From Escherichia phage vB_EcoM_3HA11: a DNA stretch of 64,000 bases. Positions 14,886 to 52,848 of the stretch are shown here, one piece after another. Below the pieces are notes generated by a model. The model saw only the letters and a list, made by a program, of their open reading frames with translations, had not been told where the DNA came from and searched no databases. Position 1 is the stretch's first letter, and each line of letters begins with the position of its first letter. The position numbers were made by a program, and so were the translations under genes. Where the stretch lies: sequence record MN342150. One strand, given 5' to 3'.

Positions 14886-15407
14886 TTAATTCCTTACTTT
14901 GTCAGGATTAGATAATATTTGTTCGTATCCGACTTCTCCTTGATAGTCGAAAACATGCTGAAGAATCGCCATATCGTCTACCATCCGATAAACTTCAATT
15001 CCAGCGTTCATCAATTTTTTGATTCCATCCATAATACGATATGGCTCACGATAATATACTTTATCGATTTTACCGCTATCTATTATCTTTTGAGTGCAAT
15101 TAGGGCAAGGACTATGTGTCACAAACATAACCAACCCTGTGAAATCATCTGCATTTTCGGGGATACGCATTAGAGCATTTTCCTCCGCATGAACAACACA
15201 CGGGTTTGTAACAATTTGCCCGTGTTGCTCCATCTCACAAACATTCGGCATGCCAGGAGGCGTTCCGTTCCATCCGATAGCCACAGGCTGATCAGTTTCA
15301 GGGTTTACGATAACACAACCGACTTGCAGACGCCGAGCATAACTGGTTACACCATATGCTGCAGCTGATCGCATATGAGCAAACATCATACGTGGTTTGA
15401 TAGCCAT
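14886..15407 (-). CDS. cd: dCMP deaminase
   Basis: 173 aa; zinc-binding cytidine/dCMP deaminase motifs HAEENAL and PCPNC. Confidence 0.85.
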   Translation of the reverse strand: MAIKPRMMFAHMRSAAAYGVTSYARRLQVGCVIVNPETDQPVAIGWNGTPPGMPNVCEMEQHGQIVTNPCVVHAEENALMRIPENADDFTGLVMFVTHSPCPNCTQKIIDSGKIDKVYYREPYRIMDGIKKLMNAGIEVYRMVDDMAILQHVFDYQGEVGYEQILSNPDKVRN

Positions 15408-20519: not shown

Positions 20520-20567
20520 GTTATTGTCTCATTATGGGATTAGGCGGCAATTATACCGCCAATTTAT

Positions 20568-20981
20568 TCAATAGAGGTCTTCGGAAAAGAGTTCACGGAA
20601 AGGAGTGTTCTTCAAACGAACTTGATTAGTTTGTCCGGCTTCACGGGCGACCACAGCGGCCTCTTCACGGGACATCCATTGCCCATAGTTATCAATAAAA
20701 CCTTGTTCACGAGTGTGAGTGGTTTCGATAATACCTGCTTCTTTCAATCGTTTGAGTTGCGCGTTCATCAATTTGTCGTGATGTCGAGCGCTTACAACGA
20801 TCACATCACCATATTTGTTGGCAGCAGCCACAACACGCCGATCAAACTTGGTTGGGTCAGGTATATCACGAGCATACAAGGCGATGTGAGTGTCGTCCAC
20901 GTCCCCTTTCACTTCAGAGTATAACTGACACCCATTAGGAGATCCAGTAGGTAAAGAACGAAAATATCCAAGTAATTTCAT
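20568..20981 (-). CDS. hypothetical protein (137 aa)
   Basis: ORF; no motif. Confidence 0.4.
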   Translation of the reverse strand: MKLLGYFRSLPTGSPNGCQLYSEVKGDVDDTHIALYARDIPDPTKFDRRVVAAANKYGDVIVVSARHHDKLMNAQLKRLKEAGIIETTHTREQGFIDNYGQWMSREEAAVVAREAGQTNQVRLKNTPFRELFSEDLY

Positions 20982-20984
20982 AAT

Positions 20985-21296
20985 CTAATCTATCCATATT
21001 TCAGGTTCAGGAATATCGACCATCTCCACGGTTTGATTCTTTAATTCGTGGAAACAATCTCCAAGGAATTGTAATTTACCATCTGTCAAAAATAAATGGC
21101 AACGGCTATTTGGATCAGAATGATTCACCAACAGACTAGGAGTGAAAGTCGGTGATTCGAGATCGTGATTCCATTGCCATATTGGGCCAGGCATTTGCCC
21201 TGAAATGCGATAAGGATGAAGCATATTACAACCAGGACAATGAAAATATATGGAACCACCCATTGACAATAATTTTGAAGTCAGCAACTTTGACAT
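20985..21296 (-). CDS. small zinc-finger-like protein (about 103 aa)
   Basis: Start moved to Met 1 nt after the upstream stop; HCPGC...CH...C..H pattern. Confidence 0.4.
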   Translation of the reverse strand: MSKLLTSKLLSMGGSIYFHCPGCNMLHPYRISGQMPGPIWQWNHDLESPTFTPSLLVNHSDPNSRCHLFLTDGKLQFLGDCFHELKNQTVEMVDIPEPEIWID

Positions 21297-37972: not shown

Positions 37973-38007
37973 GATGTATTTCCTTGTAAAAGAAAGGGGA
38001 ACGGGCT

Positions 38008-38033
38008 AATAATAACCCATTCCCCTTTATTGA
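38008..38033 (-). promoter_or_regulatory. promoter-like motif TTCAATAA-N12-TATTAT (minus strand)
   Basis: Upstream of gene 37718..37972; same 18-nt block as at 35067-35084. Confidence 0.35.
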
Positions 38034-38053
38034 AGAACGCAATCGCAGTCAGA

Positions 38054-38221
38054 TTACTTTTTCTTCAGCTCTTCCAGCTTGGCTTCAATTTGGTCCAGAA
38101 TCTCTTTACCTTTCTGGACGATGGCTTCACCGTCTTGCGCGTGTTTACGAAAAACCAGAGCGCCAGCAATGAAACCAACAACCACGCCTGGGAGCGCATA
38201 CACCAACAGATCTTGTAACAT
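38054..38221 (-). CDS. small membrane protein (about 55 aa; below ORF-track cutoff)
   Basis: ATG with GTGAGGA RBS; sequence MLQDLLVYALPGVVVGFIAGALVF then charged tail; coordinates hand-counted. Confidence 0.35.
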   Translation of the reverse strand: MLQDLLVYALPGVVVGFIAGALVFRKHAQDGEAIVQKGKEILDQIEAKLEELKKK

Positions 38222-38259
38222 GATTTATATCCTCACTTTTATAAGCAAGGATATTTATA

Positions 38260-39495
38260 TCATCGTTTCAACAAAGACATGAGGTTTACACTGGTCGACT
38301 TCGGATTGTCCTCTATCTTCCGGACGGGCATTTTCAGATTAGTGTAAACCTCAGATGGTTCCCAACGCGTACCCTGCTGCAGGTGCCATATATGTAGAGG
38401 AACACCCGTCTCAAAGAACACAGACATCTTCCACTTCTGGACGCCAGGAACGTGCCCTGCAGGAGCTTTTTCGCATAACAGGGTATCTGGTAGCCAGAGG
38501 GAACGGGCTTCCCATAATGCCTTACAGGAGTACTCAGGCCAGATGCGTTCCATGTAGTCGATCTCATCCCAAGTACGCTCGGCATCCCACCCGATGTAAC
38601 GAGTGTTTTTCAGACGGAAGAATTTCTTAAGCCAACAAGCACCGGAAGTCTCAAAGTTCAAACGATTGATGAACGTGATGTGACCAAACTCGGCGACACA
38701 ATCTTTGAATGCCTGTTCAAGATCAGCCTCAAGGATGTCGCATTCTTCATCGGTGATAGGACAGCCGTTGATCTTTTTCTTTCCGTGCTTGGTCACCCAG
38801 TCGTCACGGTTTGACAAGAATGCCGCGCCGTTACGGTTGGACTCACTACCATCACGGTCACGCAACATGAACCCAGGGACGTCGATCTGATACATGTTGC
38901 CGAATACCATGTTCAGGGCTTCCAGGAAGTTCCAGGCGCTCAGGCGACCGAAGTATTTCCACCCCATAGCCGTGTCCCATAGCTTAACGAATTGATCACT
39001 TTGCAGTTTAGTCTCCAACAACGGACGGAAAGCATCCATCTGAGTACGACCAGCCAGCCAATCAATGTAGGACTGAACACACGGGATCATCTTCGATTTG
39101 CGATAGCGGCAATCAGTATCGAATCGCATACGCTCGAAGTTCAGGTTATACCAATCACAGAATCGCTTGAACTCTTGTGGTGACTGAGGCGGTACAGGAA
39201 ACTCACTATAAATCGTCCATGGGCCAACCCCATTATAACAACAGCCCCAAAGGAACGCCATCCAGATCTTGCGCTCGATCTTCTCAAGCTGCGTAATGCC
39301 TTCAGTGACTTCAATCGCATAATCCATCAGACGAACTTGTTGGTTGTGTTCTTCCGTATACGACAGCGCCTCCACCCATGCTTTGAGCAGATACATCCGA
39401 TTCTCTGGCTTACGATAATCGATTGACAAATCAATTGGGTACTTCCATTCAGCCGGAGGCGTATAACCTGTCGGCATTTTAGATAGATGCGTCAT
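38260..39495 (-). CDS. hypothetical protein (411 aa); candidate DNA-modification enzyme by context
   Basis: Large Trp/Cys-rich ORF with no motif I can name; upstream in the same operon as the P-loop kinase. Confidence 0.4.
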   Translation of the reverse strand: MTHLSKMPTGYTPPAEWKYPIDLSIDYRKPENRMYLLKAWVEALSYTEEHNQQVRLMDYAIEVTEGITQLEKIERKIWMAFLWGCCYNGVGPWTIYSEFPVPPQSPQEFKRFCDWYNLNFERMRFDTDCRYRKSKMIPCVQSYIDWLAGRTQMDAFRPLLETKLQSDQFVKLWDTAMGWKYFGRLSAWNFLEALNMVFGNMYQIDVPGFMLRDRDGSESNRNGAAFLSNRDDWVTKHGKKKINGCPITDEECDILEADLEQAFKDCVAEFGHITFINRLNFETSGACWLKKFFRLKNTRYIGWDAERTWDEIDYMERIWPEYSCKALWEARSLWLPDTLLCEKAPAGHVPGVQKWKMSVFFETGVPLHIWHLQQGTRWEPSEVYTNLKMPVRKIEDNPKSTSVNLMSLLKR

Positions 39496-39853
39496 CCTTC
39501 ACCTCGGCTTCGAGTTGGATATCTTCAGGGTTTAAAACGGGCTGGCCCAAAGACCAAATTGGAAGGAACCGACGGTCATTGGATACTACCCAGATTTGCT
39601 TGGCGGTTTTCGTTTTTTCAGAAATATAATGCTGGGCATTAACCTGAGTCCGTGCCAGCCCAATTTGCCGCCATGCACCGAAATCTTTAGAAGATGGATT
39701 GGTGTTCAGCTGAAATTGTGGGACGATTTTATTCTGTTCCGGATAGTAACGGACAGCGTTAATCATCTTCGCATCACCACGGTAATCAATAGCAACAGCG
39801 ACAACGTTGCGTGGAATGAGGATTTTCATTTTAATTCCTTTTGAAACTTTCAA
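39479..39853 (-). CDS. hypothetical protein (124 aa)
   Basis: ORF in operon. Confidence 0.35.
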   Translation of the reverse strand: MKVSKGIKMKILIPRNVVAVAIDYRGDAKMINAVRYYPEQNKIVPQFQLNTNPSSKDFGAWRQIGLARTQVNAQHYISEKTKTAKQIWVVSNDRRFLPIWSLGQPVLNPEDIQLEAEVKDDASI

Positions 39854-40034
39854 TTATGTTGTAAACGAACGGCGTTAATAAAGCAACACCGCCCGAATAA
39901 TATAACGCGTAAACATTCAATATTTCGGTTGAGTCTAATTCAACGATGCCCAAATATTTCATAACACCGACAAGCATAGCTGAAAAGCACATCACCAGAC
40001 CGACGAACACAAAATATTTAGACATCTGTTTCAT
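39831..40034 (-). CDS. small membrane protein (67 aa)
   Basis: Two hydrophobic helices. Confidence 0.35.
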   Translation of the reverse strand: MKQMSKYFVFVGLVMCFSAMLVGVMKYLGIVELDSTEILNVYALYYSGGVALLTPFVYNIIESFKRN

Positions 40035-40036
40035 TT

Positions 40037-40951
40037 CTAACCCTTGCTCAACAGGCCGAGAAGGGACACGGATGAGGTCTTTGGTTCTTCCTTGGCGACG
40101 GCCTTGTTTTTAGTTTTGGATGCCTTCTGCGGCTTCTCAGGCACTCTGTGAGCCAAAGGATCCTGACCGCCGACTTCACGCGTCATCGGATTGGTTTCGC
40201 AATAGCCGTAGAAGTCTTTCGACATCAGATTGTTAGCGCGGCAAACTGTGCCAAGCTGATGATAGATAGCATTACCCACCACCCACAACGGGGCGTCGAA
40301 CGGCAACATAGCCAATTCGCTATCATTCCCAGTCTTGAATTCTTGGGTGTTCGTAGCCGTTTGGTGGTACAAAACGTCTTGCCCACTGTAATCATCCACG
40401 GCAACATTCCAGCCAAGCGCCAGCATTTCAGCCTTGGACTTCTCGAACTCCTTGGAGTAAGATTCGTTGCGCGACCAGCCGGAATCCCCCGCTTCTTTAC
40501 CAGAGCGTCCACGGATGCGGGCATCGTACTGATAGCGGTCTGGATATGCAAAGTACAGCAGCGCCAAAGAATCAATCGGATAGTTATTGAACATCCATTC
40601 AGGACGCCACTTGTCCGACAGCATCAGAGGTTCGCCCTCACACACCAGGGTATATCCCTGAGCCAGCCAACCCTTGACGAGGTCGCGAGCAATATCCCCA
40701 GAGCCTGTGGCCGCATGAATGGCGTCCATAGAGGTCCAAGACGCCAGGCCGGATTTATTGGACACTGTGTATTGGCCGACGAAGATTAACTTCAGCTCTT
40801 CAAATTTCAGGCCGAAGGGGCGCGTCTTATCCCCAACAGTGTACGACAATTCAGTCGGCTTCAGCTTAGTGCGGAGCCACTCGATGAACTGTACGACACG
40901 AGTGCCTTTACCCGTGCCGCTGGTTCCTTTGATTACAATGATCTTTGCCAT
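40037..40951 (-). CDS. P-loop kinase (candidate nucleotide/DNA-base kinase)
   Basis: 304 aa; N-terminal Walker A IVIKGTSGTGKGT; no match to T4 dNMP kinase gp1 as remembered. Confidence 0.45.
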   Translation of the reverse strand: MAKIIVIKGTSGTGKGTRVVQFIEWLRTKLKPTELSYTVGDKTRPFGLKFEELKLIFVGQYTVSNKSGLASWTSMDAIHAATGSGDIARDLVKGWLAQGYTLVCEGEPLMLSDKWRPEWMFNNYPIDSLALLYFAYPDRYQYDARIRGRSGKEAGDSGWSRNESYSKEFEKSKAEMLALGWNVAVDDYSGQDVLYHQTATNTQEFKTGNDSELAMLPFDAPLWVVGNAIYHQLGTVCRANNLMSKDFYGYCETNPMTREVGGQDPLAHRVPEKPQKASKTKNKAVAKEEPKTSSVSLLGLLSKG

Positions 40952-41256
40952 TATGCAGCATCCTCAATGCGCCAACTCACTCCACCCAACCAAGGTGCCC
41001 AAAACACGGCAACTTGCGGATGACCATTCTCAACAAACTTCACTTTATACTGGTCATCAAAGTTATAGAAAATTTCGTCGTCATCAGGTGCCATACCGTT
41101 TTCAATCAGAACTCGTTTTAATTCCAACGCTGCGCCAACGGAAGTTGGTGGATTCTGATTACGGATGAAGTTGTTTACATGGATAATGATACCATCCATA
41201 TCACTGTCACCGGAACGCTTGTCAGGGCTTTCTACAACTTTATTTTGTTCTTGCAC
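40951..41256 (-). CDS. hypothetical protein (101 aa)
   Basis: ORF in operon. Confidence 0.35.
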   Translation of the reverse strand: MQEQNKVVESPDKRSGDSDMDGIIIHVNNFIRNQNPPTSVGAALELKRVLIENGMAPDDDEIFYNFDDQYKVKFVENGHPQVAVFWAPWLGGVSWRIEDAA

Positions 41257-41265
41257 GATGTGCTC

Positions 41266-42048
41266 CTATCGGACATATTGATAATGAGAAACCAGGCGAT
41301 TCACCACTTCATCGAGGTTACGATTTAAGAAGTCAAAGTGGTTTTGGCCTTCTACATGCTTAATATAAAGCATATCCTCGCAATTCGAAAGATCCAGTTT
41401 TTCATAATTGCCCTGAGGGACGAAGATGACGAAGATGTTATTCAGGGCACACGGCTCAACATACTTCGGATTGTCGTCGATCAGGACATCGCCAGCAAGC
41501 AGATGCTTTTCATCCGTGCTCACGAACCCATTAATCAACGATTCAAAGTGATGGTATGTGAACTGACGCTTGCTGCGTTCGTGTTCCGGTTCGCATTTTG
41601 TAACTGCCACCATTTCCACTTGCTCAAACTTCTGAAGGAGAGCGGCCTTTAAATTCGTAAGGAATTCAACAGCCCCTGGCAGTGGTGACATTCTGGAATA
41701 CAGATCAGGCATACGCCACCAATCCATCGGATCACGTCCTGTTGGCGAATCCATCCACTGACCAGCAACGAATACACGGCGCGTTAACCAGGCCGGATGC
41801 GCGCGTTCACGCATGAGGATCGCCAGATCACCAGCGTGTGACATATAGCACTCTTTGGTGATTGGTTGAAATTCAGATGGGTAGTCGTGACATCCCATAT
41901 TTTCCGCAGCGGCTTTAGAATTAGAGATATTGAACCATTCAACCCACGGCGAAAGGGAATCAACCAGAGTCAAATCCACATCCACCAGAACGCGATATAA
42001 CCCGCCAATTTTAGAACATGCGTCATACAGACCAACGTGATTATTCAT
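41266..42048 (-). CDS. HAD-superfamily hydrolase/phosphatase-like protein
   Basis: Start moved to Met with GGAGA RBS (track ORF begins at 42108, which would overlap the upstream gene by 68 nt); HAD motif I VLVDVDLTL. Confidence 0.45.
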   Translation of the reverse strand: MNNHVGLYDACSKIGGLYRVLVDVDLTLVDSLSPWVEWFNISNSKAAAENMGCHDYPSEFQPITKECYMSHAGDLAILMRERAHPAWLTRRVFVAGQWMDSPTGRDPMDWWRMPDLYSRMSPLPGAVEFLTNLKAALLQKFEQVEMVAVTKCEPEHERSKRQFTYHHFESLINGFVSTDEKHLLAGDVLIDDNPKYVEPCALNNIFVIFVPQGNYEKLDLSNCEDMLYIKHVEGQNHFDFLNRNLDEVVNRLVSHYQYVR

Positions 42049-42385
42049 CAGATTTCTCCACTTGATCATAACCAGTTGCGGTGCATTGTTCTTCGGTGCA
42101 ATCAGCATACAGAACCACAGAAGATTCCTTCACGTAAGTGGTGCAGTGATAGGTTTCATCTTCCTGGATGGAATCATCATAATTGCAAACTGTTTGCAAC
42201 GGACCAGGAGTGGTGTTGTCCAAAGCTGCATGTGCCTTGATGGTGTCTTCCATCTTATTCACCGCTTGCTGATTGGTGAACGTCGGCGCATCGAGGTCAA
42301 CAGTAGACGCAACGTCCAGAAGGGTAGAGCATGCAGTGGTAGAGAAAGCCAGAGCACACACCAGAAGAATCTTATTGAGTTTCAT
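42041..42385 (-). CDS. secreted protein or lipoprotein (about 114 aa)
   Basis: Signal-peptide-like MKLNKILLVCALAFSTTAC with Cys after the hydrophobic core; TTCAATAA-N12-TATAAT motif upstream. Confidence 0.4.
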   Translation of the reverse strand: MKLNKILLVCALAFSTTACSTLLDVASTVDLDAPTFTNQQAVNKMEDTIKAHAALDNTTPGPLQTVCNYDDSIQEDETYHCTTYVKESSVVLYADCTEEQCTATGYDQVEKSDE

Positions 42386-42419
42386 AATAATACCTGTTGT
42401 CAAAGGGATAACAGGGGGA

Positions 42420-42445
42420 ATTATATCCCCCTTTGATTTATTGAA
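42420..42445 (-). promoter_or_regulatory. promoter-like motif TTCAATAA-N12-TATAAT (minus strand)
   Basis: Upstream of the secreted/lipoprotein gene. Confidence 0.35.
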
Positions 42446-45442
42446 TCAACCTTTCTTGCCCATCATGGACAACAGATTAACTCGACGTTTGTGAGACCAA
42501 CCAACCACATCCAAGATAGACTGAATTGGCTCTATGAAGGTCTTTTCAAACGTGGTGTGGTAATCTACCCACTTATCCAGCCCCAACTCCGGAGGGAGGA
42601 AGTCAGGGAAGGCTATGCGGTCGTTCCCCACAGGATTGCCAGGTTTCAGGTTGATGATTTTAACCTTATCACCGGATTCAATAGGCGGAAGACCGAGATC
42701 TTCGTGCTTATCGATCAGCTTGTTGTACATAATACAAGCCTTGGCAGCAAAGTGTGTACCGCTGATATAATTCCCGTTCGCGTCCAGCCACTTCTCAATA
42801 TCGCTTACACCAGATGCCTGAGCGATATCATCCACGGTGAGTTCCATATATTCCTTTTTGTATCCAGCGATTAATTCCTGAACTTCAGCCTCCGTCCCGA
42901 GCAGGACTTTCTCATAACATTTGACAAGACGCTCACGACACCATTCCGGCGTTGTAGACTTACGCGCTTCCAGACCTTTGAATTTTATCTTTGGCTTCTC
43001 ATACTTGATGCCTTCGCTATCGTATACTGCCATGCAATACATCTTCTTGGCTCGCCATACAGCAGACGATGCGATGACCTCACGTTCCCAGACCATGCGC
43101 TGCTCAAACCCGTTCATGGTATTACACAACAACTGCGCCCATTCACTGGTTTTTGGCTGGTAATTCTCTTTGATCCATTGGTCAATGTTATCAACGAGTT
43201 TGTGATGGTCCTTTTCTTCAGGCCACAATTGCTTGACCAGGCGTTCAATGCAAATGTAGTTGGAGTCAGTATCACCCGCGATAACAAAATCCTGACCAGT
43301 AGTGCCGCAAAGTTTGTTCAGATAATCATCGGTGTGGCGTTTGTTCCATTTGTTGATCAGCTGGCCGGAAGTGGTGATTGCTTCAGCGATGTTGATGTTG
43401 AAGTATTCTTTAAACCAGACGTTGGAGATTGCGCCATAACCTGCGTTCATCAAGATCTTCAGACCTTGTTGTAACGTATCTTGAGCAACCCCCAGATCTT
43501 CCCATTTGTGCATGACTTCAGTCAGGTGATCAAGATCGATATGCTTGTGTTCTTCATACCATTCAGGATCGTAGAAACGAGATTTCATGGCGGACTCAAG
43601 GTGGAAATCACCTTTAGACATTTCCTTACACCAACCAGCCCATTGCTCATACTTCAGGCCAGTTGCTTTCTCTCCTTTACGGTCAGCGTATATGCCTCGC
43701 ATAATTTCGGAAAGGAAGGACATCTTCTCATTACTGAAGAACTGAACGTTCGGGGTAAACGAAACGTTATATCGGCGTAATGTTTCAAAATGGAATTCGC
43801 CCAGCGCGACCAATTCATCAACAACTTGTATGCGTTCATCAATAGCACGCTGCAACTTGTCGTGAAGATTTTTGAGATGACGACGTTTATTCATCGGCGT
43901 TGTCATATCATTCATCGCTTTGGTCAATTCCTCACACATGGCCTCAATAATATCACGGCGTGTGTGCTTATCAGAAACGATAGTCTCTGGACCAAGGTTG
44001 TATTGCTGTATGATGTGGGGATACAGGGAGTTTAAGTCCTCAGAGAAGACCCAGAAATATATCCCTGGGGCAACCTCCATGACATATGCGCCTTCAAAAT
44101 CTGTTGGCCCATCATAGACGCGCTGGATTTTCGGGACAATCCCCTTCTCATAAAGACGATAATAACACATCGCCAGCCACGGCGCTACAGTGCCGAGACC
44201 GTCTTCATAGTTGGATTTAGTGCGATAAGCCAATACAAACATCAGCTGTATCAAACGCAGTTTTTGTTCTAAGCGCCACACCAGCTTGACGTCTTTGATA
44301 CCATATCGCGTATGCTTGCAATAATCATTGAAATAAAGGTCATACAATGATTTGCTTTCACTATAATCCAACTTCTTCTCACCGAGTTCACAATAAGCGA
44401 TCCAGTCCAGTGAGTATTTTTCGCGGGTGGTGTAAGTGTGTTTCTTGTACACTTGCATGTAGTCCATCATTGGACAACCCACAAACTGATAAGACGTGAC
44501 GTCGCCTTTACGGTCTTTGATGAAACGTTTCTTCAGTTTACCCCAAGGACTGAGACGTTGGGCTTCAGATTCACCAAGAACCTGCGTAATTCGTTCAACC
44601 AAATAGGGGCTATCGAACGTTTCAATGTTCCAACCAGTCCAACCGTCAAATTGACGTTCCGACCAGTAATCCAAGAAGGCGCGAAGCAGATCTTGTTCCG
44701 TCGTATATTCTTTATATTCAACCTCAAGACCGCCGACTTCTTCATCATTGGGGTCATATTTGAATTTATGGCGATCCTTGGAACACGGCATGCCCCAGAC
44801 ATAGAATTTATTGGTATTCATATCTTGGAGCTGTATCAGCGTAATAGGGAACGCCGCATTCATGTTCTGTGTGATTTTACCGTTACTGTCAATTATAGGG
44901 AATTGGTCAGTCACGTTGTTGGAAATAAAGGAACCAGGGAAATGCTCCCGAACGAAATCATGGTTGGCCAGTACTTGCTTATGGAAACGACGAACCCGCG
45001 CCTCGCTGCCTTTAAACGTGTGAGATTCAATCGTTGCGTGTGGGAATGGACCTTTAGTCATTTCTCCGTCACGCCAACCAGCCGAGAACACTTCGATATC
45101 CACGTTGGCGATGTGGATATTTGAATAATCAGGTGTGATCATCCCAGGAAAACTATGGGCGATGAATTGATATGCATAATCCGTTTGTCCATACACCGCA
45201 GCCCCTTCGACCTCCTTGTACTCCTCAAGATAGTTGTCAGCGTCGCGCATTGATGCAAACTTTTTAGACACCAACGGTTCGTTGAGGAGGCCAATCTTTT
45301 CAACTTTGGAATAATCAGCTGTGGGTAAATACAAGGTGGGTTCGAATTTCTTACGCAACATGCGGCGATTGCCGTTGTCGTCTGCGATACGAATCAGAAG
45401 GTCGTTACCCTGTCGGGCAACGTTCGTATAGAAAACAGTCAT
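42446..45442 (-). CDS. 43: family B DNA polymerase (T4 gp43 homolog)
   Basis: Exo I DIE, Pol motif A DLNSLYP, motif C YGDTDS; start moved to Met 35 of the track ORF (GGAGA RBS; MTVFYTNVARQGNDLLIRIADDNGN parallels gp43 N-terminus), giving about 998 aa. Confidence 0.9.
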   Translation of the reverse strand: MTVFYTNVARQGNDLLIRIADDNGNRRMLRKKFEPTLYLPTADYSKVEKIGLLNEPLVSKKFASMRDADNYLEEYKEVEGAAVYGQTDYAYQFIAHSFPGMITPDYSNIHIANVDIEVFSAGWRDGEMTKGPFPHATIESHTFKGSEARVRRFHKQVLANHDFVREHFPGSFISNNVTDQFPIIDSNGKITQNMNAAFPITLIQLQDMNTNKFYVWGMPCSKDRHKFKYDPNDEEVGGLEVEYKEYTTEQDLLRAFLDYWSERQFDGWTGWNIETFDSPYLVERITQVLGESEAQRLSPWGKLKKRFIKDRKGDVTSYQFVGCPMMDYMQVYKKHTYTTREKYSLDWIAYCELGEKKLDYSESKSLYDLYFNDYCKHTRYGIKDVKLVWRLEQKLRLIQLMFVLAYRTKSNYEDGLGTVAPWLAMCYYRLYEKGIVPKIQRVYDGPTDFEGAYVMEVAPGIYFWVFSEDLNSLYPHIIQQYNLGPETIVSDKHTRRDIIEAMCEELTKAMNDMTTPMNKRRHLKNLHDKLQRAIDERIQVVDELVALGEFHFETLRRYNVSFTPNVQFFSNEKMSFLSEIMRGIYADRKGEKATGLKYEQWAGWCKEMSKGDFHLESAMKSRFYDPEWYEEHKHIDLDHLTEVMHKWEDLGVAQDTLQQGLKILMNAGYGAISNVWFKEYFNINIAEAITTSGQLINKWNKRHTDDYLNKLCGTTGQDFVIAGDTDSNYICIERLVKQLWPEEKDHHKLVDNIDQWIKENYQPKTSEWAQLLCNTMNGFEQRMVWEREVIASSAVWRAKKMYCMAVYDSEGIKYEKPKIKFKGLEARKSTTPEWCRERLVKCYEKVLLGTEAEVQELIAGYKKEYMELTVDDIAQASGVSDIEKWLDANGNYISGTHFAAKACIMYNKLIDKHEDLGLPPIESGDKVKIINLKPGNPVGNDRIAFPDFLPPELGLDKWVDYHTTFEKTFIEPIQSILDVVGWSHKRRVNLLSMMGKKG

Positions 45443-45503
45443 TGTTTGTCTCCGGTTAACCGTGCCGTCAGCACGTCCCCGTAATTTAACCGAGGAACGT
45501 TCA

Positions 45504-46094
45504 ATGACCAAGGAGTTTAAAATGGCAATCCCCTTTGTGAGCATGATTCCAGGGGCGCTAAAGCAACTCTGGAATCTTGGGACTGATTTGGTGCAATATA
45601 AGCGGGAAATTGTTCAGGCTAAACACGATGTTAAACTGGAGGCAATAAAGTCTTCTTCAGAATGGGAACTTTCTAAGATTACCGAAGTCGGCGGATCTTG
45701 GAAAGATGAATTCTGGACAATCGTTTTGGCTGTTCCCGCTATCCTTGTTATGATCGCTCCGGTTGTGGAACTTCTAATGTTCCCCACCGAGTATCATAAA
45801 GGGGATTTCATCAAAGCAGTAATTGATGGTATGCAAGCCCTTGAAACAGCGCCTGATTGGTATACTGCTTCGCTATTGACAGCAATTAGTGCATCATTCG
45901 GTATCAAGGGGTACAACCATTACAAAAGCAATAGCCGGAAGGCGCAAGCTGTGGATGCTCTCAAACAGTTTGGGGTCAAAGTGGTTAACAAAGATCCCAC
46001 TGTTGTTACTCAGTCGGGTTCTCCCGATCTTGAGTCTGCTCCCCCAGCTGGGTCTACTGCGACCTCTGGTGCGTGGCCTGATCTGAAGAAATAA
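45504..46094 (+). CDS. membrane protein (about 196 aa)
   Basis: Divergent from DNA polymerase; GAGGA RBS (alternative ATG at 45522 with AAGGAG); central hydrophobic helix FWTIVLAVPAILVMIAPVV. Confidence 0.4.
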   Translation: MTKEFKMAIPFVSMIPGALKQLWNLGTDLVQYKREIVQAKHDVKLEAIKSSSEWELSKITEVGGSWKDEFWTIVLAVPAILVMIAPVVELLMFPTEYHKGDFIKAVIDGMQALETAPDWYTASLLTAISASFGIKGYNHYKSNSRKAQAVDALKQFGVKVVNKDPTVVTQSGSPDLESAPPAGSTATSGAWPDLKK

Positions 46095-46100
46095 GTTCAA

Positions 46101-46126
46101 GGGGAGGAAACTCCCCTTTCTTTTGG
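46101..46126 (+). terminator. rho-independent terminator
   Basis: Hairpin GGGGAG-gaaa-CTCCCC followed by TTTCTTTTGG. Confidence 0.5.
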
Positions 46127-46135
46127 TGTTAGGGA

Positions 46136-46348
46136 ATGAAAGTGGTAAACAAGAGATTGCTCGTCACCCAAGGCGGGGCGACGATAGTACGCGGACGGAT
46201 ATATGAACAAACCAAGCTGGGTGATCATAAGACTCGTCTGACGGTTAAAGCCCCCGACGGCGGTTGGCCAACAAAGGTGATTGTCCCAGACGGCCTCATA
46301 GAACGAGGGACGGCGACGTATAAGGGTGCAGAGTTCAAAATTTATTAA
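46136..46348 (+). CDS. hypothetical small protein (70 aa)
   Basis: ORF after a hairpin terminator. Confidence 0.35.
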   Translation: MKVVNKRLLVTQGGATIVRGRIYEQTKLGDHKTRLTVKAPDGGWPTKVIVPDGLIERGTATYKGAEFKIY

Positions 46349-46443
46349 AATATTTATTGAATAAAGTTTACTTCTTCAATAACTGGCGTATACTTCTAAT
46401 TGTAGTACGAACAAACAACAATCTGAAGAGAAGGAAATACATC

Positions 46444-47001
46444 ATGGCAATCGAAATTATCGCTCAATCAAAATCAGGCAAGACTGTAATGTACGGCACT
46501 GAAGAAGGCCGCTGCATCATCAACTACGGCACTATCACTGGCGAGTCTCCAGAGAAAGGTGGTCGCTATCTGGTTGAGTACGGATCACGCCTCCTGATGG
46601 TAAGCAAAGTCGATGGTCGTGAAATCATGATTCCTCGTAAAGAATACTTTGACTCACGCTCTGCCGCGATGACTTTCTTCCTCTTCCAGAAACGCCACGA
46701 ACTCTTCGTTGAAGCGAAAGACGCAGGTCTGGACGACGCGACGGCTGAGCTGATTGCCGAAGGTAAAATGACTCTCGAAGCTGCTCTGGGGGACATGGAT
46801 TGCGAAGCCGAAGCACATTATATTGAATATTCCGCATATCAGAACGAATGTGAAGATGATCCGGAAGACGACGGATTCGACCCTGACCTCCACGGCGGCG
46901 AAGACGATAACACCCCTTCCTTAGAAGTTCTGATGGCTGGCGGCCAGGCCGCTTGGGAATGGCAGAACGAGAAGAACGCCTGGCTGGATTCCCGTATCTA
47001 A
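46444..47001 (+). CDS. hypothetical protein with strongly acidic C-terminus (about 185 aa)
   Basis: ATG with AAGGAA RBS inside track ORF 46357..47001; C-terminal ECEDDPEDDGFDPDLHGGEDD. Confidence 0.45.
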   Translation: MAIEIIAQSKSGKTVMYGTEEGRCIINYGTITGESPEKGGRYLVEYGSRLLMVSKVDGREIMIPRKEYFDSRSAAMTFFLFQKRHELFVEAKDAGLDDATAELIAEGKMTLEAALGDMDCEAEAHYIEYSAYQNECEDDPEDDGFDPDLHGGEDDNTPSLEVLMAGGQAAWEWQNEKNAWLDSRI

Positions 47002-47008
47002 TTGACTG

Positions 47009-47030
47009 AAGCCCCTTCGGGGGCTTACTT
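47009..47030 (+). terminator. terminator-like hairpin
   Basis: AAGCCCC-ttcg-GGGGCTT followed by ACTTTG (weak T-run). Confidence 0.35.
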
Positions 47031-47049
47031 TGAACTGAAGGACTATATC

Positions 47050-47202
47050 ATGATTTTAATCTTATGGTTTGTATTCACATTTCTGGCCATGGCCGACATC
47101 GGCAAGTATCACGTTCTCCCAAGCGACCTGACCGTCCTGCTATACGGCATAGTTTCGTTTGTGCTGGGTTCCTTGCGCGCCCATATGAGGACTATATCAT
47201 GA
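47050..47202 (+). CDS. small membrane protein (about 50 aa)
   Basis: ATG with GAAGGA RBS inside ORF 47002..47202; hydrophobic MILILWFVFTFLAMA. Confidence 0.35.
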   Translation: MILILWFVFTFLAMADIGKYHVLPSDLTVLLYGIVSFVLGSLRAHMRTIS

Positions 47203-47396
47203 GCACCCCAAAAACTCCTGTCCGTATCGCTGTTGAGCCTCTGCTGGTTGATGCTGAGAATGCTGCTGAGCAGTACGCGAACAAAATCATCAAGAACATA
47301 ATGGACGATCTAGCATCCAACGGCTGGGACGTTGAGAAGTGCGCTCCGTGGCCATCTTCGGTTGGCGTCAAGTTTGGTGATCCAGTTTACAAATGA
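47199..47396 (+). CDS. hypothetical small protein (about 65 aa)
   Basis: ATGA overlap with previous gene; GAGGA RBS; leader sequence duplicated from the preceding gene. Confidence 0.4.
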   Translation: MSTPKTPVRIAVEPLLVDAENAAEQYANKIIKNIMDDLASNGWDVEKCAPWPSSVGVKFGDPVYK

Positions 47397-47489
47397 AAGA
47401 CTCATACTGCATCGCGGCGTTTCGACGTGCTTCCTTGACAAACAGAGCATGGCGTTCAGGATCAGCTTTGACAATATCCGGCTTCCCAG

Positions 47490-47744
47490 GTGTGTAAGAA
47501 GGATTCACTGCCTGGGTCAAAGAACGGTAGAGTGCGTGTTTTGATTTCATTCGTTGGTAATCTGGAAAACAAAATTGGTGGTCACAGCGCGGCTGTACTG
47601 AATGGTTCCCATGTATGGGGGTATTCAATCCTGACCGTGACTACACCAGAGGGGATCGAGCGCTGGAAGACTCAGACGATTATCAATGTGTCCAAGCTGG
47701 GCAAACTCTTTAACCAATATCCAACCAGGAAGGTGAAGGAGTAA
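47490..47744 (+). CDS. hypothetical small protein (84 aa)
   Basis: Plus-strand ORF ending before the hairpin at about 47757-47777; preferred over the overlapping minus ORF 47368..47628. Confidence 0.3.
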   Translation: MCKKDSLPGSKNGRVRVLISFVGNLENKIGGHSAAVLNGSHVWGYSILTVTTPEGIERWKTQTIINVSKLGKLFNQYPTRKVKE

Positions 47745-47756
47745 AATTAGAACAAC

Positions 47757-47777
47757 AAAGGGGCATTAAGCCCCTTT
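47757..47777. terminator. bidirectional terminator between convergent genes
   Basis: Hairpin AAAGGGGC-attaa-GCCCCTTT with T-rich flanks on both strands. Confidence 0.45.
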
Positions 47778-47779
47778 GT

Positions 47780-48238
47780 TTATTTCCCATCCCAAAAGTC
47801 GTCTTCATCGTCTACTTCATCAAACGCAGAATCCAATTCTTCGTCAGAGTACTCTGGAAGGCGACCATTCTGTTTCAGATATTCAATCTCGTCATCTTCC
47901 AATTGAAGATCCGTTGCTATAAACAGTGCTCCGGTCTCTTCATCATGTTCAATGCTATAAGACGTATATTCAGAACCCTGAACTGTAATGATGATAGATG
48001 TTGGATCTTCTGGATCCACGTGAGCTTCAAACGGGATACCGTCAATTGGGGCGTCTTCTAAGAACGTTGCAAGGGCTACGGCAGCGCGGACAACATCCGT
48101 GCCCTGTACCGATGCATAAATTTCTTCTGCACCCGTTTCCCCGCGCTCAAAGAATTCAATCGTAGTTCCGTCTTGAACCCCAGTCCAGATAGGCATATCT
48201 GCTGGTGTATCGGCTTCAAATAATTTTGAAATTGGCAT
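47780..48238 (-). CDS. highly acidic protein (152 aa), candidate DNA mimic
   Basis: About a quarter of residues are Asp/Glu with few Lys/Arg; C-terminal DEVDDEDDFWDG; last gene of the operon before a terminator. Confidence 0.45.
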   Translation of the reverse strand: MPISKLFEADTPADMPIWTGVQDGTTIEFFERGETGAEEIYASVQGTDVVRAAVALATFLEDAPIDGIPFEAHVDPEDPTSIIITVQGSEYTSYSIEHDEETGALFIATDLQLEDDEIEYLKQNGRLPEYSDEELDSAFDEVDDEDDFWDGK

Positions 48239-48273
48239 GTTCGTTTCCTCTATGGATAAACCTTATGGGATAT

Positions 48274-48723
48274 TTAGGCTTCTCTCTTCGCCAGCCCTGG
48301 TTTAAACACGACCATTTCTTCAACGTTATTAGCGCTCATAGAGGCTATGGAATCGAATCCTTTATTGATAAGTTCCTTCACATTATCGTGAATCTTACCA
48401 GGTTCTATCCCCAACTCACGCATTTTGTTTTCCCAAACAGAAACGTTATTAGAATCTATCACCAGAGTCTTCTTGGCCTTAACACGAAATGCCATGACAA
48501 CAGGTTCACCAGATTGACGATAGCGAACGGCGTTTTCCGCGTAGATCTGCGCTTTTTCTGGATCCCCTGTCAGGTAAAATCCAGCACCCATCGTACCTGA
48601 GTCAGTCTGGCCAAATTTTTCAAAGTCAAAGACGTCGAATTCAACATTCGACCCATGATATAAAACAATATCCGTAAAATCGGGCAATGTTGATTCACGA
48701 TAGAATTCTAGGAAGGTTTTCAT
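48274..48723 (-). CDS. hypothetical protein (149 aa) with HGS motif (speculative ADP-ribosyltransferase-fold)
   Basis: LYHGSN near the N-terminus, then aromatic-rich GAGFYLTGD and a later Glu; pattern-level resemblance only. Confidence 0.4.
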   Translation of the reverse strand: MKTFLEFYRESTLPDFTDIVLYHGSNVEFDVFDFEKFGQTDSGTMGAGFYLTGDPEKAQIYAENAVRYRQSGEPVVMAFRVKAKKTLVIDSNNVSVWENKMRELGIEPGKIHDNVKELINKGFDSIASMSANNVEEMVVFKPGLAKREA

Positions 48724-48762
48724 AGATACCCCACACTTGCTGTATGGGGTATTTAGGAGGGA

Positions 48763-50037
48763 TCAATCAGGGGTAAACTCGTTCACAGGAACTTGTTCCG
48801 GCATAGACAATTCGGGGCATGCTGCCTTCATTGGCTCAATATACGGCTTGCTACCAACAATCCAGAACAGAGCGTTTTCGTTGAGCAGTTCTGGCTTATG
48901 CTGTTGGATCCAGGTCATGACCTTGCCTTCATAGCGAGGATGCAGCTCAATATCACCCCACTGATAATCCATCAGGTCATTATAGCGAACCCAATTCGTT
49001 GTATGCAAATCCCAATGGTGTACTGCAAAGCGTGGGAGCGTTATCTCCGACTCTCCCTTCTCGCGGATACCCATCAGGAGGCCAGCCAGCGAAACGCTCT
49101 TAGAGGCATGCTGAAGATCCTTCTTGCCGTACACATAATCTGGGTTGTCGTGATAGCAACGAGTGAAATCCGTTATGTGCGGAAGATTAGCTTGTTTTCC
49201 AATAATACGCAAACGGCTTTCAATAAAGTCCAGACGGTTGGGACCAATCCCGATCAGATATACATTTTTCAGATTCGGTTTCGGGTGCATTGCCAGCCCT
49301 GTCAAAATGCTGGTACAAGAATTACATGAACCAGCAGGAATGATCAGATCTGTGATATGGTCCGGAATGTTAGCAACCTGCTCGCCGCCCAGCATATGAA
49401 ATCCTGCAATCCTCTCCGGAGAATGCAACGTATGATCCAGAGTGATCCCATACTCTAGATAATATGCTTTTGGATTCTGCTGCTCAATCAATTTCTTGCA
49501 GCGCGGCTGGATAGTGCTGTTGTAACCCGAACCGACAAAGTTGAATTCGCTGCCGAACCAGGCGCTCATCTTCACCATGTCATGGTTCATACACGTGGTG
49601 GGTTTGGTAGCGCCCAGGACTGTAGTTGTCTTGCCGCCGAAATGCCGTGAGACTGCTGTCGCCATAGGGGACTGCGGACTACCAACGACAGTACCATGGA
49701 TAAGGTCTGGGGAGCCTCCGGCCTTTAAATGCTCAACCATCAGCCAGATGGCCTGACGCAATTTACTACCATTGATCCCCTGCTTACCATTCATATAACA
49801 AGACAGCGGCGCGAAGTAATCTTCACGTTTGAACCAGACCTGCTGATTAGTTTCAGGGTTGGCAACGAGTTCGCATGGGGTGTGCTTATAGAGATAGTCT
49901 TCCCAATGGATATGGTCTCTGTTAAGGGAAAGAACATTAAAGATAGTTTTGTATGGACCTTTCCCAATATGATGCATCGGGATATATGGGGAAAGCGGTT
50001 GGCTGGGAAAAGATTTTGGATCAATTGGTTCGTTCAT
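48763..50037 (-). CDS. PLP-dependent enzyme, fold type II (ACC deaminase / D-cysteine desulfhydrase-like)
   Basis: 424 aa; FKREDYF...NGSKLRQAIWL resembles the KRED...GGNKxRK PLP-lysine region of that family. Confidence 0.45.
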   Translation of the reverse strand: MNEPIDPKSFPSQPLSPYIPMHHIGKGPYKTIFNVLSLNRDHIHWEDYLYKHTPCELVANPETNQQVWFKREDYFAPLSCYMNGKQGINGSKLRQAIWLMVEHLKAGGSPDLIHGTVVGSPQSPMATAVSRHFGGKTTTVLGATKPTTCMNHDMVKMSAWFGSEFNFVGSGYNSTIQPRCKKLIEQQNPKAYYLEYGITLDHTLHSPERIAGFHMLGGEQVANIPDHITDLIIPAGSCNSCTSILTGLAMHPKPNLKNVYLIGIGPNRLDFIESRLRIIGKQANLPHITDFTRCYHDNPDYVYGKKDLQHASKSVSLAGLLMGIREKGESEITLPRFAVHHWDLHTTNWVRYNDLMDYQWGDIELHPRYEGKVMTWIQQHKPELLNENALFWIVGSKPYIEPMKAACPELSMPEQVPVNEFTPD

Positions 50038-50106
50038 TCTATTTCTCCTGTAGACATTGGCTTATCATAGCGTATCTACAGGAGTATAGAAAAGGAGAAT
50101 CTCGGG

Positions 50107-52006: not shown

Positions 52007-52095
52007 TGGCGGAAGGTGAAGGATTCGAACCTTCGGGGGCTAAAAGCCCCACTCGATTAGCAGTCGAGTCCCTTAAACCTCTCGGGCAACCTTCC
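52007..52095 (-). tRNA. tRNA-Ser (anticodon GCU)
   Basis: Hand-folded cloverleaf: acceptor GGAAGGT/ACCTTCC, anticodon stem CTCGA/TCGAG with loop CTGCTAA, long variable arm, T-loop TTCGAAT, encoded CCA. Confidence 0.7.
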
Positions 52096-52099
52096 AATT

Positions 52100-52183
52100 T
52101 GGAGCGGGAGAACAGGATTCGAACCTGTCCAGTGATCGTCGCCGATGATCAGTCGGCTACTGGCCAACCCCTATGGCTCCCGC
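52100..52183 (-). tRNA. tRNA-like element (anticodon loop CTGATCA, possible GAU), non-canonical junctions
   Basis: Acceptor GCGGGAG/CTCCCGC and T-arm present, but one extra nucleotide between T-stem and acceptor, no clean D-stem, pyrimidine at position 37. Confidence 0.3.
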
Positions 52184-52544
52184 GAAATTAGGACGGGCTT
52201 CACACCCGATTGAGCATTTCATCTGCCCGTTTGAAGGGCGACCAGTGCCTTCTGGTCTGTACACAGCTGGCTGCAACGCTTACCGTGTTTGGTCTACCGC
52301 TACGTGCTGGGCCACGCTCGAGGACATCGGCCATCCTTCCTCAGCTAATCCACGCAGCGGCAGATTTGTATCAGAGTGTCCGGTGTAGCTTTCCGTGAGG
52401 TGCGCACTACTGTAGCCTCTACACTCTGAATTTGGTGGGCGTTACTATCGTCGTCTTCGGATTCCGTTCTGCTATTGGACAGAGGCTTGGAGCTTGTCGG
52501 TCGCATACTTCGTGCCTATTCACTTTCGTTCACACCCGTAATTC

Positions 52545-52619
52545 TGGCGGTGCCTCAAGGACTCGAACCTTGCTATCACGGATTAACAGTCCGCCGCTTC
52601 ACCATTTAGCTAAAGCACC
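52545..52619 (-). tRNA. tRNA-Asn (anticodon GUU)
   Basis: 75 nt; acceptor GGTGCTT/AGGCACC, anticodon stem GCGGA/TCCGT with loop CTGTTAA, T-arm CAAGG-TTCGAGT-CCTTG, encoded CCA. Confidence 0.65.
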
Positions 52620-52627
52620 TGAATATT

Positions 52628-52703
52628 TGGCATGCCCTCCAGGACTCGAACCTGGGTTGTACGGTTTTGGAGACCGACCTCATAGCCGCTAGATCAAGGG
52701 CAC
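52628..52703 (-). tRNA. tRNA-Trp (anticodon CCA), weak D-stem
   Basis: 76 nt; acceptor GTGCCCT/AGGGCAT, anticodon loop CTCCAAA, T-arm CCAGG-TTCGAGT-CCTGG, encoded CCA. Confidence 0.5.
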
Positions 52704-52717
52704 ACACCTTACAACGA

Positions 52718-52742
52718 ACTATACTGTATAAAGGTTATTGAA
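52718..52742 (-). promoter_or_regulatory. promoter-like motif TTCAATAA-N11-TATAGT (minus strand) upstream of tRNA-Trp
   Basis: The -10-like hexamer ends about 15 nt before the mature tRNA-Trp 5' end. Confidence 0.35.
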
Positions 52743-52771
52743 ACAAACCTTTATTTTATTCAACCATAATA

Positions 52772-52848
52772 TGGTGATCCTGGTTGGGTTTGAACCAACG
52801 ACCAATGAATTATGAGTTCACTGCTCTAACCGACTGAGCTACAGGACC
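52772..52848 (-). tRNA. tRNA-Met (anticodon CAU; initiator/elongator/Ile-lysidine not distinguished)
   Basis: 77 nt canonical cloverleaf: acceptor GGTCCTG/CAGGATC, D-arm GCTC-AGTCGGTTA-GAGC, anticodon stem GTGAA/TTCAT with loop CTCATAA, T-loop TTCAAAC, CCA. Confidence 0.75.

Follow-up and report, generated by a model that had tools for sequence, protein, structure and literature searches.

Predicted genes for the post-replicative half of the ViI 5-NeOmdU pathway in Escherichia phage vB_EcoM_3HA11

Thymidine hypermodification in phage ViI and its relatives

In the DNA of Salmonella phage ViI, 5-NeOmdU replaces about 43% of T, while 5-hmdU makes up 7% and T itself 50%. This DNA is resistant to 71% of type II enzymes (Flodman 2019; PMC6449724). 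5-NeOmdU has been reconstituted in vitro from five ViI lysates (Lee 2018 PNAS; PMC5889632), and the activities of gp243, gp247 and gp226 were established with purified ViI proteins, isotope labelling and Cys/Glu mutants (Lee 2021 NAR; PMC8989533). In an ATP-dependent reaction gp243 phosphorylates 5-hmdU in DNA; gp247, in which mutants show a cysteine and a glutamate to be essential, transfers isotope-labelled L-serine to DNA-borne 5-PmdU by way of the serine hydroxyl; and gp226 decarboxylates O-serinylthymidine to 5-NeOmdU (PMC8989533). For gp226 the lysine K92 has also been published, and Phyre2 matched the protein to 1j0a with 98.9% confidence (PMC8989533). The modification genes are conserved across the family Ackermannviridae, and 5-NeOmdU is found in CBA120 too (PMC11721090); a further MS confirmation of this base came from a Taipeivirus (bioRxiv 2026.05.19.726188). 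Through thymidine hypermodification, phages of the Ackermannviridae withstand most type II restriction enzymes. The modification matters for phage therapy, for biocontrol and for the sequencing and cloning of such genomes, and its pathway offers DNA-modifying enzymes.

The DNA that we analysed is a stretch of 64,000 nucleotides (the window). At the DNA level positions 38000–50100 are 98.5% identical to Salmonella phage Vi01 (ViI) and 99.2% identical to phage Guerrero, and nearly all of the 283 phage records that match this region belong to the Ackermannviridae. Judged by these matches, the window is assigned to the genome of a ViI-like Kuttervirus (Ackermannviridae). The phage is a mosaic relative and not ViI itself, with the best local matches to Guerrero, FrontPhageNews and vB_Sen_ST2.

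Four genes flagged by a first-pass annotation made from the letters alone were confirmed as minus-strand open reading frames at the coordinates in Table 1. Between them lies a family-B DNA polymerase (DNA_pol_B_exo1 7e-17, DNA_pol_B 3e-14) whose mechanical open reading frame reaches 45544 and whose start is Met35 of that frame. Very probably, the window comes from a ViI-like Kuttervirus and encodes the post-replicative half of its 5-NeOmdU pathway; the hypermodification system itself is already known. Promoter-like sites between 37900 and 50300 number 20, with 19.5 expected from shuffled sequence; as there is no excess, we draw no operon claim from them.

Table 1. Predicted genes of the window that are discussed in the text
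Predicted product	Coordinates	Strand	Details
Serine:DNA transferase (aGPT-Pplase clade 2 / ADDT)	38260..39495	(-)	411 aa; ViI gp247 ortholog (YP_004327568; Vi01_199/orf00247)
5-hmdU DNA kinase	40037..40951	(-)	304 aa; ViI gp243 ortholog (YP_004327565; Vi01_196/orf00243)
DUF7254 protein	40951..41256	(-)	101 aa; Pfam DUF7254 3e-47
NT5C-type HAD 5'(3')-deoxyribonucleotidase	41266..42048	(-)	260 aa; Vi01_194 ortholog
Family-B (T4 gp43-like) DNA polymerase	42446..45442	(-)	Pfam DNA_pol_B_exo1, DNA_pol_B; PHROG 262; Vi01_190 ortholog
PLP-dependent O-serinylthymidine decarboxylase	48763..50037	(-)	424 aa; ViI gp226 ortholog (YP_004327553; Vi01_182/orf00226)
dCMP deaminase	14886..15407	(-)	Pfam dCMP_cyt_deam_1 1.4e-17

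Kinase, transferase and decarboxylase

The first-pass annotation had proposed a post-replicative gene set for thymidine hypermodification, with a 5-hmdU DNA kinase, a transferase of the pyrophosphorylase type and a PLP-dependent enzyme. Matches to the families HMUD2 and ADDT, together with 98.7–99.8% identity to the ViI enzymes, bear this out, and the family assignments of all four flagged proteins lie well above chance level. The protein it had called a P-loop kinase matches Pfam HMUD2 ("5-hmdU DNA kinase 2") at 8e-168 (557.6 bits against a cut-off of 25) with residues 1–303 on positions 1–298 of the model. Its Walker A motif (P-loop, NTP-binding) is GTSGTGKG at residues 9–16, and it equals ViI gp243 in length with 98.7% protein identity. 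A single-sequence search of the PDB with this protein gave nothing useful. We assign it as the 5-hmdU DNA kinase, predicted to phosphorylate 5-hmdU in DNA at its hydroxymethyl group, which would yield 5-PmdU.

The 411-aa protein, which had been left without an assignable motif, turns out to be the transferase itself. Residues 49–292 match Pfam ADDT ("amino acid:DNA transferase") at 3e-58, with 197.7 bits against a cut-off of 26.2, and the protein is as long as ViI gp247 and 99.3% identical to it, differing at V90I, S358P and E395D. A phmmer search against the PDB returned nothing at E<=1. In an alignment of five sequences E282 is invariant, with C287 close behind. In the window protein the cysteine thus follows at E+5; in PaMx11 gp46 (E243/C247), as in three other homologs, it follows at E+4. 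The protein is assigned as an aGPT-Pplase2 transferase, which would form O-serinylthymidine by putting the side-chain oxygen of serine in the place of the phosphate of 5-PmdU.

The third enzyme had been described as a fold-type-II PLP-dependent protein, and a profile search supports this description. It matches Pfam PALP with an E-value of 2.5e-7, but its 30.7 bits lie below the gathering score of 35. A single-sequence search of the PDB gave nothing useful either, and only a small profile of five homologs reached solved structures: the ACC deaminases 1f2d, 1j0e and 1j0a, and D-cysteine desulfhydrase (fold type II), the best at 1.6e-5. The invariant K92 (G-S-K-L-R) aligns with the PLP lysine (G-N-K-L-R) of ACC deaminase and D-cysteine desulfhydrase. 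With 99.8% identity to ViI gp226 at equal length, the protein is assigned as the decarboxylase, predicted to turn O-serinylthymidine in DNA into 5-NeOmdU. The gene directly adjoining it is annotated as an acetyltransferase in Guerrero, and PaMx11 gp48 is such an enzyme; we rejected this label, as the product matches ART-PolyVal/DUF3990. It is 100% identical in ViI.

That the kinase, transferase and decarboxylase steps operate in this phage we infer from the 98.7–99.8% identity to the ViI proteins. The phage would first replicate its DNA with 5-hmdUTP in place of dTTP, drawing on dUMP hydroxymethylase, dNMP kinase and dUTPase-like genes expected just past the window's left edge. The family-B polymerase would be expected to incorporate 5-hmdUMP as the new DNA is made. 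The dCMP deaminase within the window is likely the supplier of dUMP for the hydroxymethylase and would belong to the pre-replicative half; such a role of phage dCMP deaminases in hmU phages has been stated (PMC8989533). After replication the gp243 ortholog, using ATP, would phosphorylate the hydroxymethyl group of 5-hmdU to yield 5-PmdU. A cysteine of the gp247 ortholog would then attack C6 and the phosphate would be expelled, leaving an exocyclic methylene to which the hydroxyl of free L-serine would add, forming O-serinylthymidine. Finally, the gp226 ortholog would bind the free alpha-amine as a Schiff base and remove CO2, producing 5-(2-aminoethoxy)methyl-dU. This product, 5-NeOmdU, would replace about 40% of T and block most type II restriction enzymes. 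We found nothing that contradicts the main assignment of the three enzymes.

The first-pass annotation had seen no hydroxymethylase in the window and had suggested looking for one elsewhere in the genome. By tblastn no thymidylate-synthase-like gene is found in the 64-kb window, and searches of it for the ThyA-like hydroxymethylase, the gp67 kinase, gp160, dNMP kinase, dUTPase and MazG gave only noise (E >= 0.2), which places these genes outside it. The reference genomes do have a ThyA-like gene: in Vi01 and Guerrero the dUMP hydroxymethylase lies 2.5–3.5 kb beyond the position that matches the window's left edge. There it adjoins the second kinase, gp67 (HMUD1); the helical paralog gp160 (HMUDK_hel) is also outside the window. 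Hence, the absence of the hydroxymethylase reflects where the window ends and not what the genome contains.

One could also argue that these genes encode ordinary enzymes of nucleotide and amino-acid metabolism with no role in DNA modification. GenBank names such as "guanylate kinase", "putative threonine ammonia lyase", "threonine dehydratase" and "putative homing endonuclease" would agree with this, as would the label guanylate kinase on PHROG 4409. However, these generic names are automated transfers, the HMUD2 and ADDT matches are specific, and the 99%-identical ViI proteins act on 5-hmdU, 5-PmdU and O-serinylthymidine carried in DNA, so that published biochemistry refutes the argument; we give it practically no chance. 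Such ordinary families with no hydroxymethylase in the genome, or virion DNA of canonical nucleosides only, had been named as findings that would refute hypermodification. Neither applies: the reference genomes have a dUMP hydroxymethylase, and ViI-type virion DNA has about 40–43% 5-NeOmdU. It is also highly improbable that the final base differs from that of ViI, be it through a change of donor caused by the substitutions relative to gp247 or through further decoration of 5-NeOmdU by the ART-like protein. A few pocket residues do set the donor choice of aGPT-Pplase2 enzymes (PMC13458397), there are three substitutions, and an ART-PolyVal/DUF3990-like gene does adjoin the PLP gene. Yet each substitution is either conservative or C-terminal, ViI has an identical ART-like protein and only 5-NeOmdU, 5-hmdU and T in its DNA, and CBA120 and a Taipeivirus, with more divergent enzymes, make 5-NeOmdU as well.

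The phosphatase between polymerase and kinase

The fourth flagged gene had been taken for a HAD-like phosphatase of the modification pathway. The family is right, as the protein scores 31.3 bits with Pfam NT5C, whose cut-off is 24.8; membership in the pathway is not borne out by the published scheme. Its mechanical open reading frame extends to 42108. We take the ATG at 42048 as the start: GGAG precedes it by about 7 nt, and the Vi01 gene is annotated from this codon. Invariant residues are D23, D25 and T27 of motif I (DxDxT, here D23-V-D25-L-T27), S159, K160, and D191 and D192 of motif IV. Against the PDB, a profile of five sequences matches nothing but mdN/cdN 5'(3')-deoxyribonucleotidases, the best at 2.1e-8, and we assign the protein, by its motifs and relatives, as a genuine NT5C-type 5'(3')-deoxyribonucleotidase. 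It is not among the five genes of the in vitro reconstitution (PMC5889632), was not needed there (also PMC8989533), and is not a documented member of the published pathway; position and family are what would place it there.

The HAD gene sits between polymerase and kinase in Kuttervirus, in Miltonvirus and in a Vibrio Ackermannviridae phage. In the Vibrio phage the protein is 27% identical, the order HAD, small ORF, kinase, transferase is kept, and the HAD gene lies inside a single cluster of about 19 kb with every pathway gene. Full-length homologs found by tblastn are confined to the Ackermannviridae, and M6, PhiW-14 and SP10 are not among the matches, so that co-distribution with hypermodification beyond the family was not borne out. 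HAD relatives occur in phages phiTE and pf16; the phiTE homolog is near replication and thymidylate-synthase genes, and phiTE is not known to hypermodify. The DUF7254 protein is always found between HAD and kinase and takes the same position in Serratia phage 3M. At this position Vibrio phage 1.255.O has a small ORF whose E-value of 0.007 in a single comparison is too weak for homology.

Most likely the HAD protein is a deoxynucleoside-monophosphate phosphatase that acts on the nucleotide pool. Possibly it is the dTMPase of hmU-type phages, which would clear dTMP before replication; the position conserved across the Ackermannviridae makes this role plausible. Against a role in the pathway, mdN-type enzymes hydrolyse dUMP too, and the protein would therefore compete with the hydroxymethylase. 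A dTMPase, an activity known from Bacillus hmU phages, is a recognised pre-replicative step in hmU phages (PMC8989533). Because the place between polymerase and kinase is kept down to 27% identity, and because of the single cluster in the Vibrio phage, one could go further and see in the HAD protein, perhaps together with the DUF7254 protein, an unrecognised working part of thymidine hypermodification in the Ackermannviridae. It would either clear thymidine nucleotides as a dTMPase so that 5-hmdUTP is used or, more radically, set the level of about 40% as a phosphatase of 5-PmdU in DNA. On the whole we think such a part unlikely.

The radical version, in which the protein is integral to the post-replicative half, would account for hypermodification stopping at about 40% of sites, and both the gene order conserved from Kuttervirus to the Vibrio phage and the place within that phage's cluster would fit. 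But all structural relatives are mononucleotide 5'(3')-deoxyribonucleotidases, reconstitution worked without the protein, and relatives occur in phages that lack hypermodification genes. The polymerase is embedded just as firmly, and the synteny may reflect a module of replication and nucleotide metabolism. Removal of phosphate from 5-PmdU by the HAD protein is thus very unlikely. No new biology follows from the window, barring this modest question of whether the NT5C-like phosphatase belongs to the pathway. Its value is correct annotation, as many public records say "guanylate kinase", "threonine ammonia lyase", "homing endonuclease" or "hypothetical protein".

Comparison with known systems

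The HAD protein has the DxDxT, S-K and DD motifs in common with mdN/cdN, the human mitochondrial and cytosolic 5'(3')-deoxyribonucleotidases (NT5C), but is longer, with 260 aa against about 200, from an insertion after motif I. The transferase shares an E-x3/4-C-x-[WFY]-x-K segment with gp46 of Pseudomonas phage PaMx11 (PUGT), for which structures have been solved. The two are only about 20% identical, the PaMx11 donor is glycine and not serine, and the cysteine is offset by one residue.

Pseudomonas phage M6 makes 5-NedU with the kinase gp54, the glycine transferase gp51, the radical-SAM isomerase gp53 and the PLP decarboxylase gp52. The logic is shared: phosphorylation of 5-hmdU in DNA, amino-acid transfer by an aGPT-Pplase2 enzyme and PLP-dependent decarboxylation. 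In M6, however, glycine is used, an N-C bond is formed first and a radical-SAM isomerase is needed, whereas in the window serine would be joined through its oxygen and no isomerase is needed. M6 is not among the tblastn matches for the transferase or the PLP enzyme of the window.

The closest system is the 5-NeOmdU pathway of ViI (Vi01), with its two 5-HMUDK kinases, gp243 and gp67, the aGPT-Pplase2 gp247 and the PLP decarboxylase gp226. Genes, order, orientation and catalytic residues are the same, and the window differs from ViI by a few conservative substitutions.

The ViI enzymes on either side of the polymerase

Our results place this locus within the thymidine-hypermodification system of Salmonella phage Vi01 (ViI) itself. 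It is not a variant of that system, and in this sense it is already known. The first-pass annotation had proposed a thymidine-hypermodification set of four genes, and all four lie at the coordinates it gave; they are encoded on the minus strand and flank the family-B DNA polymerase. Its reading is borne out by the identity of the transferase, kinase and PLP enzyme to the characterised gp247, gp243 and gp226 of ViI (99.3%, 98.7% and 99.8%, with equal lengths). In the Vi01 record the corresponding genes are labelled orf00247, orf00243 and orf00226; Lee et al. call their products gp247, gp243 and gp226.

The protein first described as a P-loop kinase is a 5-hmdU DNA kinase whose Walker A motif spans residues 9-16. 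The 411-aa protein had been left without an assignable motif; it does match a family, ADDT ("amino acid:DNA transferase"), which was earlier named alpha-glutamyl/putrescinyl thymine pyrophosphorylase clade 2. The assignment of the PLP enzyme to fold-type II is supported because a five-homolog profile, compared with PDB sequences, finds ACC deaminases and D-cysteine desulfhydrase and nothing else (best 1.6e-5), and because the invariant Lys92 aligns with the PLP lysine of these enzymes. K92 is the proposed Schiff-base lysine of gp226 (PMC8989533).

Misleading names are widespread in the public records that match 38260-50037, and for Vi01_061c. The kinase gp243 appears as "guanylate kinase" or "putative homing endonuclease", gp226 as "threonine ammonia lyase/dehydratase", the second ViI kinase gp67 as "terminase small subunit" or "thymidylate kinase", and gp247 mostly as "hypothetical protein".

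Features of the window, ordered by position
Feature	Coordinates	Strand	Length	Evidence
Segment without Guerrero counterpart	4124-6077		~2 kb	99.1% identity in GEC_vB_GOT, SeF3a, others
PspA/IM30-like ORF inside that segment	4684-5307			33.6 bits, slightly below cut-off
dCMP deaminase	14886-15407			match 1.4e-17
ORF with PP-loop ATPase signature	17367-18029	-	220 aa	weak QueC, ThiI, tRNA_Me_trans matches, residues 29-97
Locally divergent early-gene region	18105-21028			84.8% identity to Guerrero
Amino acid:DNA transferase	38260-39495	-	411 aa	Pfam ADDT, 3e-58
E-T-S-G-A-C motif of the transferase	38638-38652			residues 282-287
5-hmdU DNA kinase	40037-40951	-	304 aa	Pfam HMUD2 "5-hmdU DNA kinase 2", end to end, 8e-168
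HAD-like NT5C phosphatase	41266-42048	-	260 aa	NT5C, 31.3 bits (cut-off 24.8)
GC-rich hairpin	42413-42449			with 10/12 sigma-70-like promoter match
Strong bidirectional hairpin	47754-47780			
Gene downstream of PLP decarboxylase	48274-48723	-	149 aa	Pfam ART-PolyVal 9e-11, above cut-off; DUF3990
PLP decarboxylase	48763-50037	-	424 aa	PALP 2.5e-7, below gathering score
N-terminal residues of PLP protein	49951-50037		29 aa	
Five clustered tRNA genes	52007-52848	-		
tRNA-Ile (anticodon gat)	52100-52183		84 nt	ARAGORN

In PHROG 3650 and in most relatives, similarity to gp226 begins only at about residue 30. Either the N-terminal extension is confined to the ViI subgroup, or translation really starts further downstream, with Met21 a candidate. 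The gene immediately downstream of the decarboxylase matches a family of ADP-ribosyltransferases in polyvalent proteins, is 100% identical in ViI and is called "putative N-acetyltransferase" in the Guerrero annotation. One hairpin lies where the minus-strand PLP unit meets a converging plus-strand unit, the other in the 42-bp gap directly past the polymerase stop. The overall count of promoter-like sites around the locus is not above chance.

Reaction steps, precursor supply and genome setting

The chemistry has been worked out in ViI. Lysates containing gp67, gp160, gp226, gp243 and gp247 convert 5-hmdU DNA to the native 5-(2-aminoethoxy)methyl-dU (5-NeOmdU) (PMC5889632). Either gp243 or gp67 alone phosphorylates 5-hmdU in DNA; purified gp247, with an essential conserved Cys and Glu, transfers L-serine to give O-serinylthymidine (O-SerT), as confirmed by 13C/15N label; and purified PLP-containing gp226 decarboxylates O-SerT to a 301-u nucleoside (PMC8989533). 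The order demonstrated in ViI is kinase, serine transfer via a covalent Cys-C6/exocyclic-methylene intermediate, and PLP decarboxylation. About 43% of the thymine-type bases of ViI are 5-NeOmdU, 7% 5-hmdU and 50% T, and the DNA resists 71% of the type II enzymes tested (PMC6449724). How the remaining ~50% of sites end as plain T is an open question in the field (PMC5889632). According to a review, the modification genes are kept family-wide (PMC11721090), and 5-NeOmdU was reconfirmed by MS in a Taipeivirus in a 2026 preprint (bioRxiv 2026.05.19.726188).

Given the near-identity of the three proteins, we infer that the same steps operate in vB_EcoM_3HA11. The gp243 ortholog would phosphorylate 5-hmdU in DNA, the gp247 ortholog would transfer serine through the covalent intermediate, and the gp226 ortholog would decarboxylate O-SerT to 5-NeOmdU. 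From what is known of the family, 5-hmdUTP would be supplied by the dCMP deaminase together with an off-window hydroxymethylase, dNMP kinase and dUTPase, and incorporated by the family-B polymerase. A dCMP deaminase provides dUMP in hmU-type phages (PMC8989533).

As the first reading had remarked, no hydroxymethylase is visible in the window: the Vi01 ThyA-like protein has no tblastn match there, and neither do gp67, the helical paralog gp160, or the dNMP kinase, dUTPase-like and MazG-like proteins. The gap is explained by where the window was cut. In Vi01 and Guerrero a block of dUTPase_2, dNMP kinase, the ThyA-like gene (Thymidylat_synt 1.3e-14) and gp67 (HMUDK_HMUD1 2.6e-116) begins ~1.4 kb past the equivalent of window position 1, and its far end lies ~4-5 kb from that point. 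The gene for gp160 (Pfam HMUDK_hel 4e-83) lies at ~88 kb in Vi01, adjoining the MazG-like gene.

For the region 38000-50100 there are matches in 283 phage records, almost all of them from Ackermannviridae. Identity is 99.2% for both Guerrero and FrontPhageNews, two Salmonella phages, and 98.5% for Vi01, the type Kuttervirus. In orientation the window is the reverse of the Vi01 and Guerrero records. It starts within a uvsX/RecA-like gene (~Guerrero position 33585) and continues across the ends of these records as far as the tail-fibre and tail-spike region. G+C stays at ~44-48% along the whole window, and the composition does not shift at the modification locus. Since the segment missing in Guerrero is nearly identical in GEC_vB_GOT and SeF3a, the genome is a mosaic of Kuttervirus lineages. 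The divergent early-gene region compares with 95-99% identity to Guerrero elsewhere, and the PP-loop ORF is named "putative alpha hydrolase" in the Guerrero annotation. At the place matching the tRNA-Ile gene, Guerrero has an annotated tRNA-Leu; an Ile anticodon would be unusual in a long-arm tRNA.

The role of the phosphatase

The phosphatase is the sole part of the finding that is not settled already. Its description as HAD-like holds: it keeps the DxDxT, S-K and DD motifs, and its profile matches solely mitochondrial and cytosolic 5'(3')-deoxyribonucleotidases in the PDB (2.1e-8). Mechanical ORF calling carries the frame on to 42108, but the start annotated in Vi01 corresponds to 42048, which is preceded by the better ribosome-binding site.

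One could argue that this enzyme belongs specifically to the hypermodification pathway. Its full-length homologs are confined to Ackermannviridae (tblastn), which counts for such a link. The order polymerase, (small ORFs), phosphatase, small ORF, HMUD2 kinase, ADDT is the same in Serratia phage 3M and Vibrio phage 1.255.O, and in the latter a homolog of just 27% identity sits mid-cluster within ~19 kb holding all pathway genes. The polymerase sits inside that same cluster, however, which counts against a specific link. So do the absence of M6, PhiW-14 and SP10 from the tblastn matches, and a homolog in phage phiTE that lies near polymerase and thymidylate-synthase genes without hypermodification genes.

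Enzymes of the mdN type favour dUMP and dTMP. A phage dTMPase counts as one of the pre-replicative steps in hmU phages (PMC8989533). The phosphatase is absent from the genes used in the ViI reconstitution (PMC5889632, PMC8989533). Based on the enzyme preference and the dTMPase step, our leading but tentative suggestion is a dNMP phosphatase acting on the nucleotide pool, possibly a dTMPase.

Comparison with other hypermodifying phages

In the gp247 ortholog the cysteine lies at E+5 (E282/C287), whereas in PaMx11 gp46 it lies at E+4 (E243/C247). E+4 is also the position of the cysteine in homologs from Vibrio, Mycobacterium and Caulobacter phages, although the Vibrio protein carries one at both positions. 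E282 is invariant across the compared homologs. Because ViI gp247 is identical here, the E+5 cysteine is a property of the clade and not of this window.

In the distant Ackermannviridae phage 1.255.O (MG592621), every thymidine-hypermodification gene falls within 1264-20679, in the order PLP enzyme, split polymerase, HAD, HMUD2, ADDT, HMUDK_hel, HMUD1, ThyA-like, dNMP kinase and dUTPase; inserted genes divide its family-B polymerase into three ORFs. What forms one stretch there is spread across three loci in Kuttervirus. The set in the window differs from the M6 route (glycine and a radical-SAM isomerase) and from the PaMx11 route (glycine, a flavin lyase and an acetyltransferase) just as ViI does.
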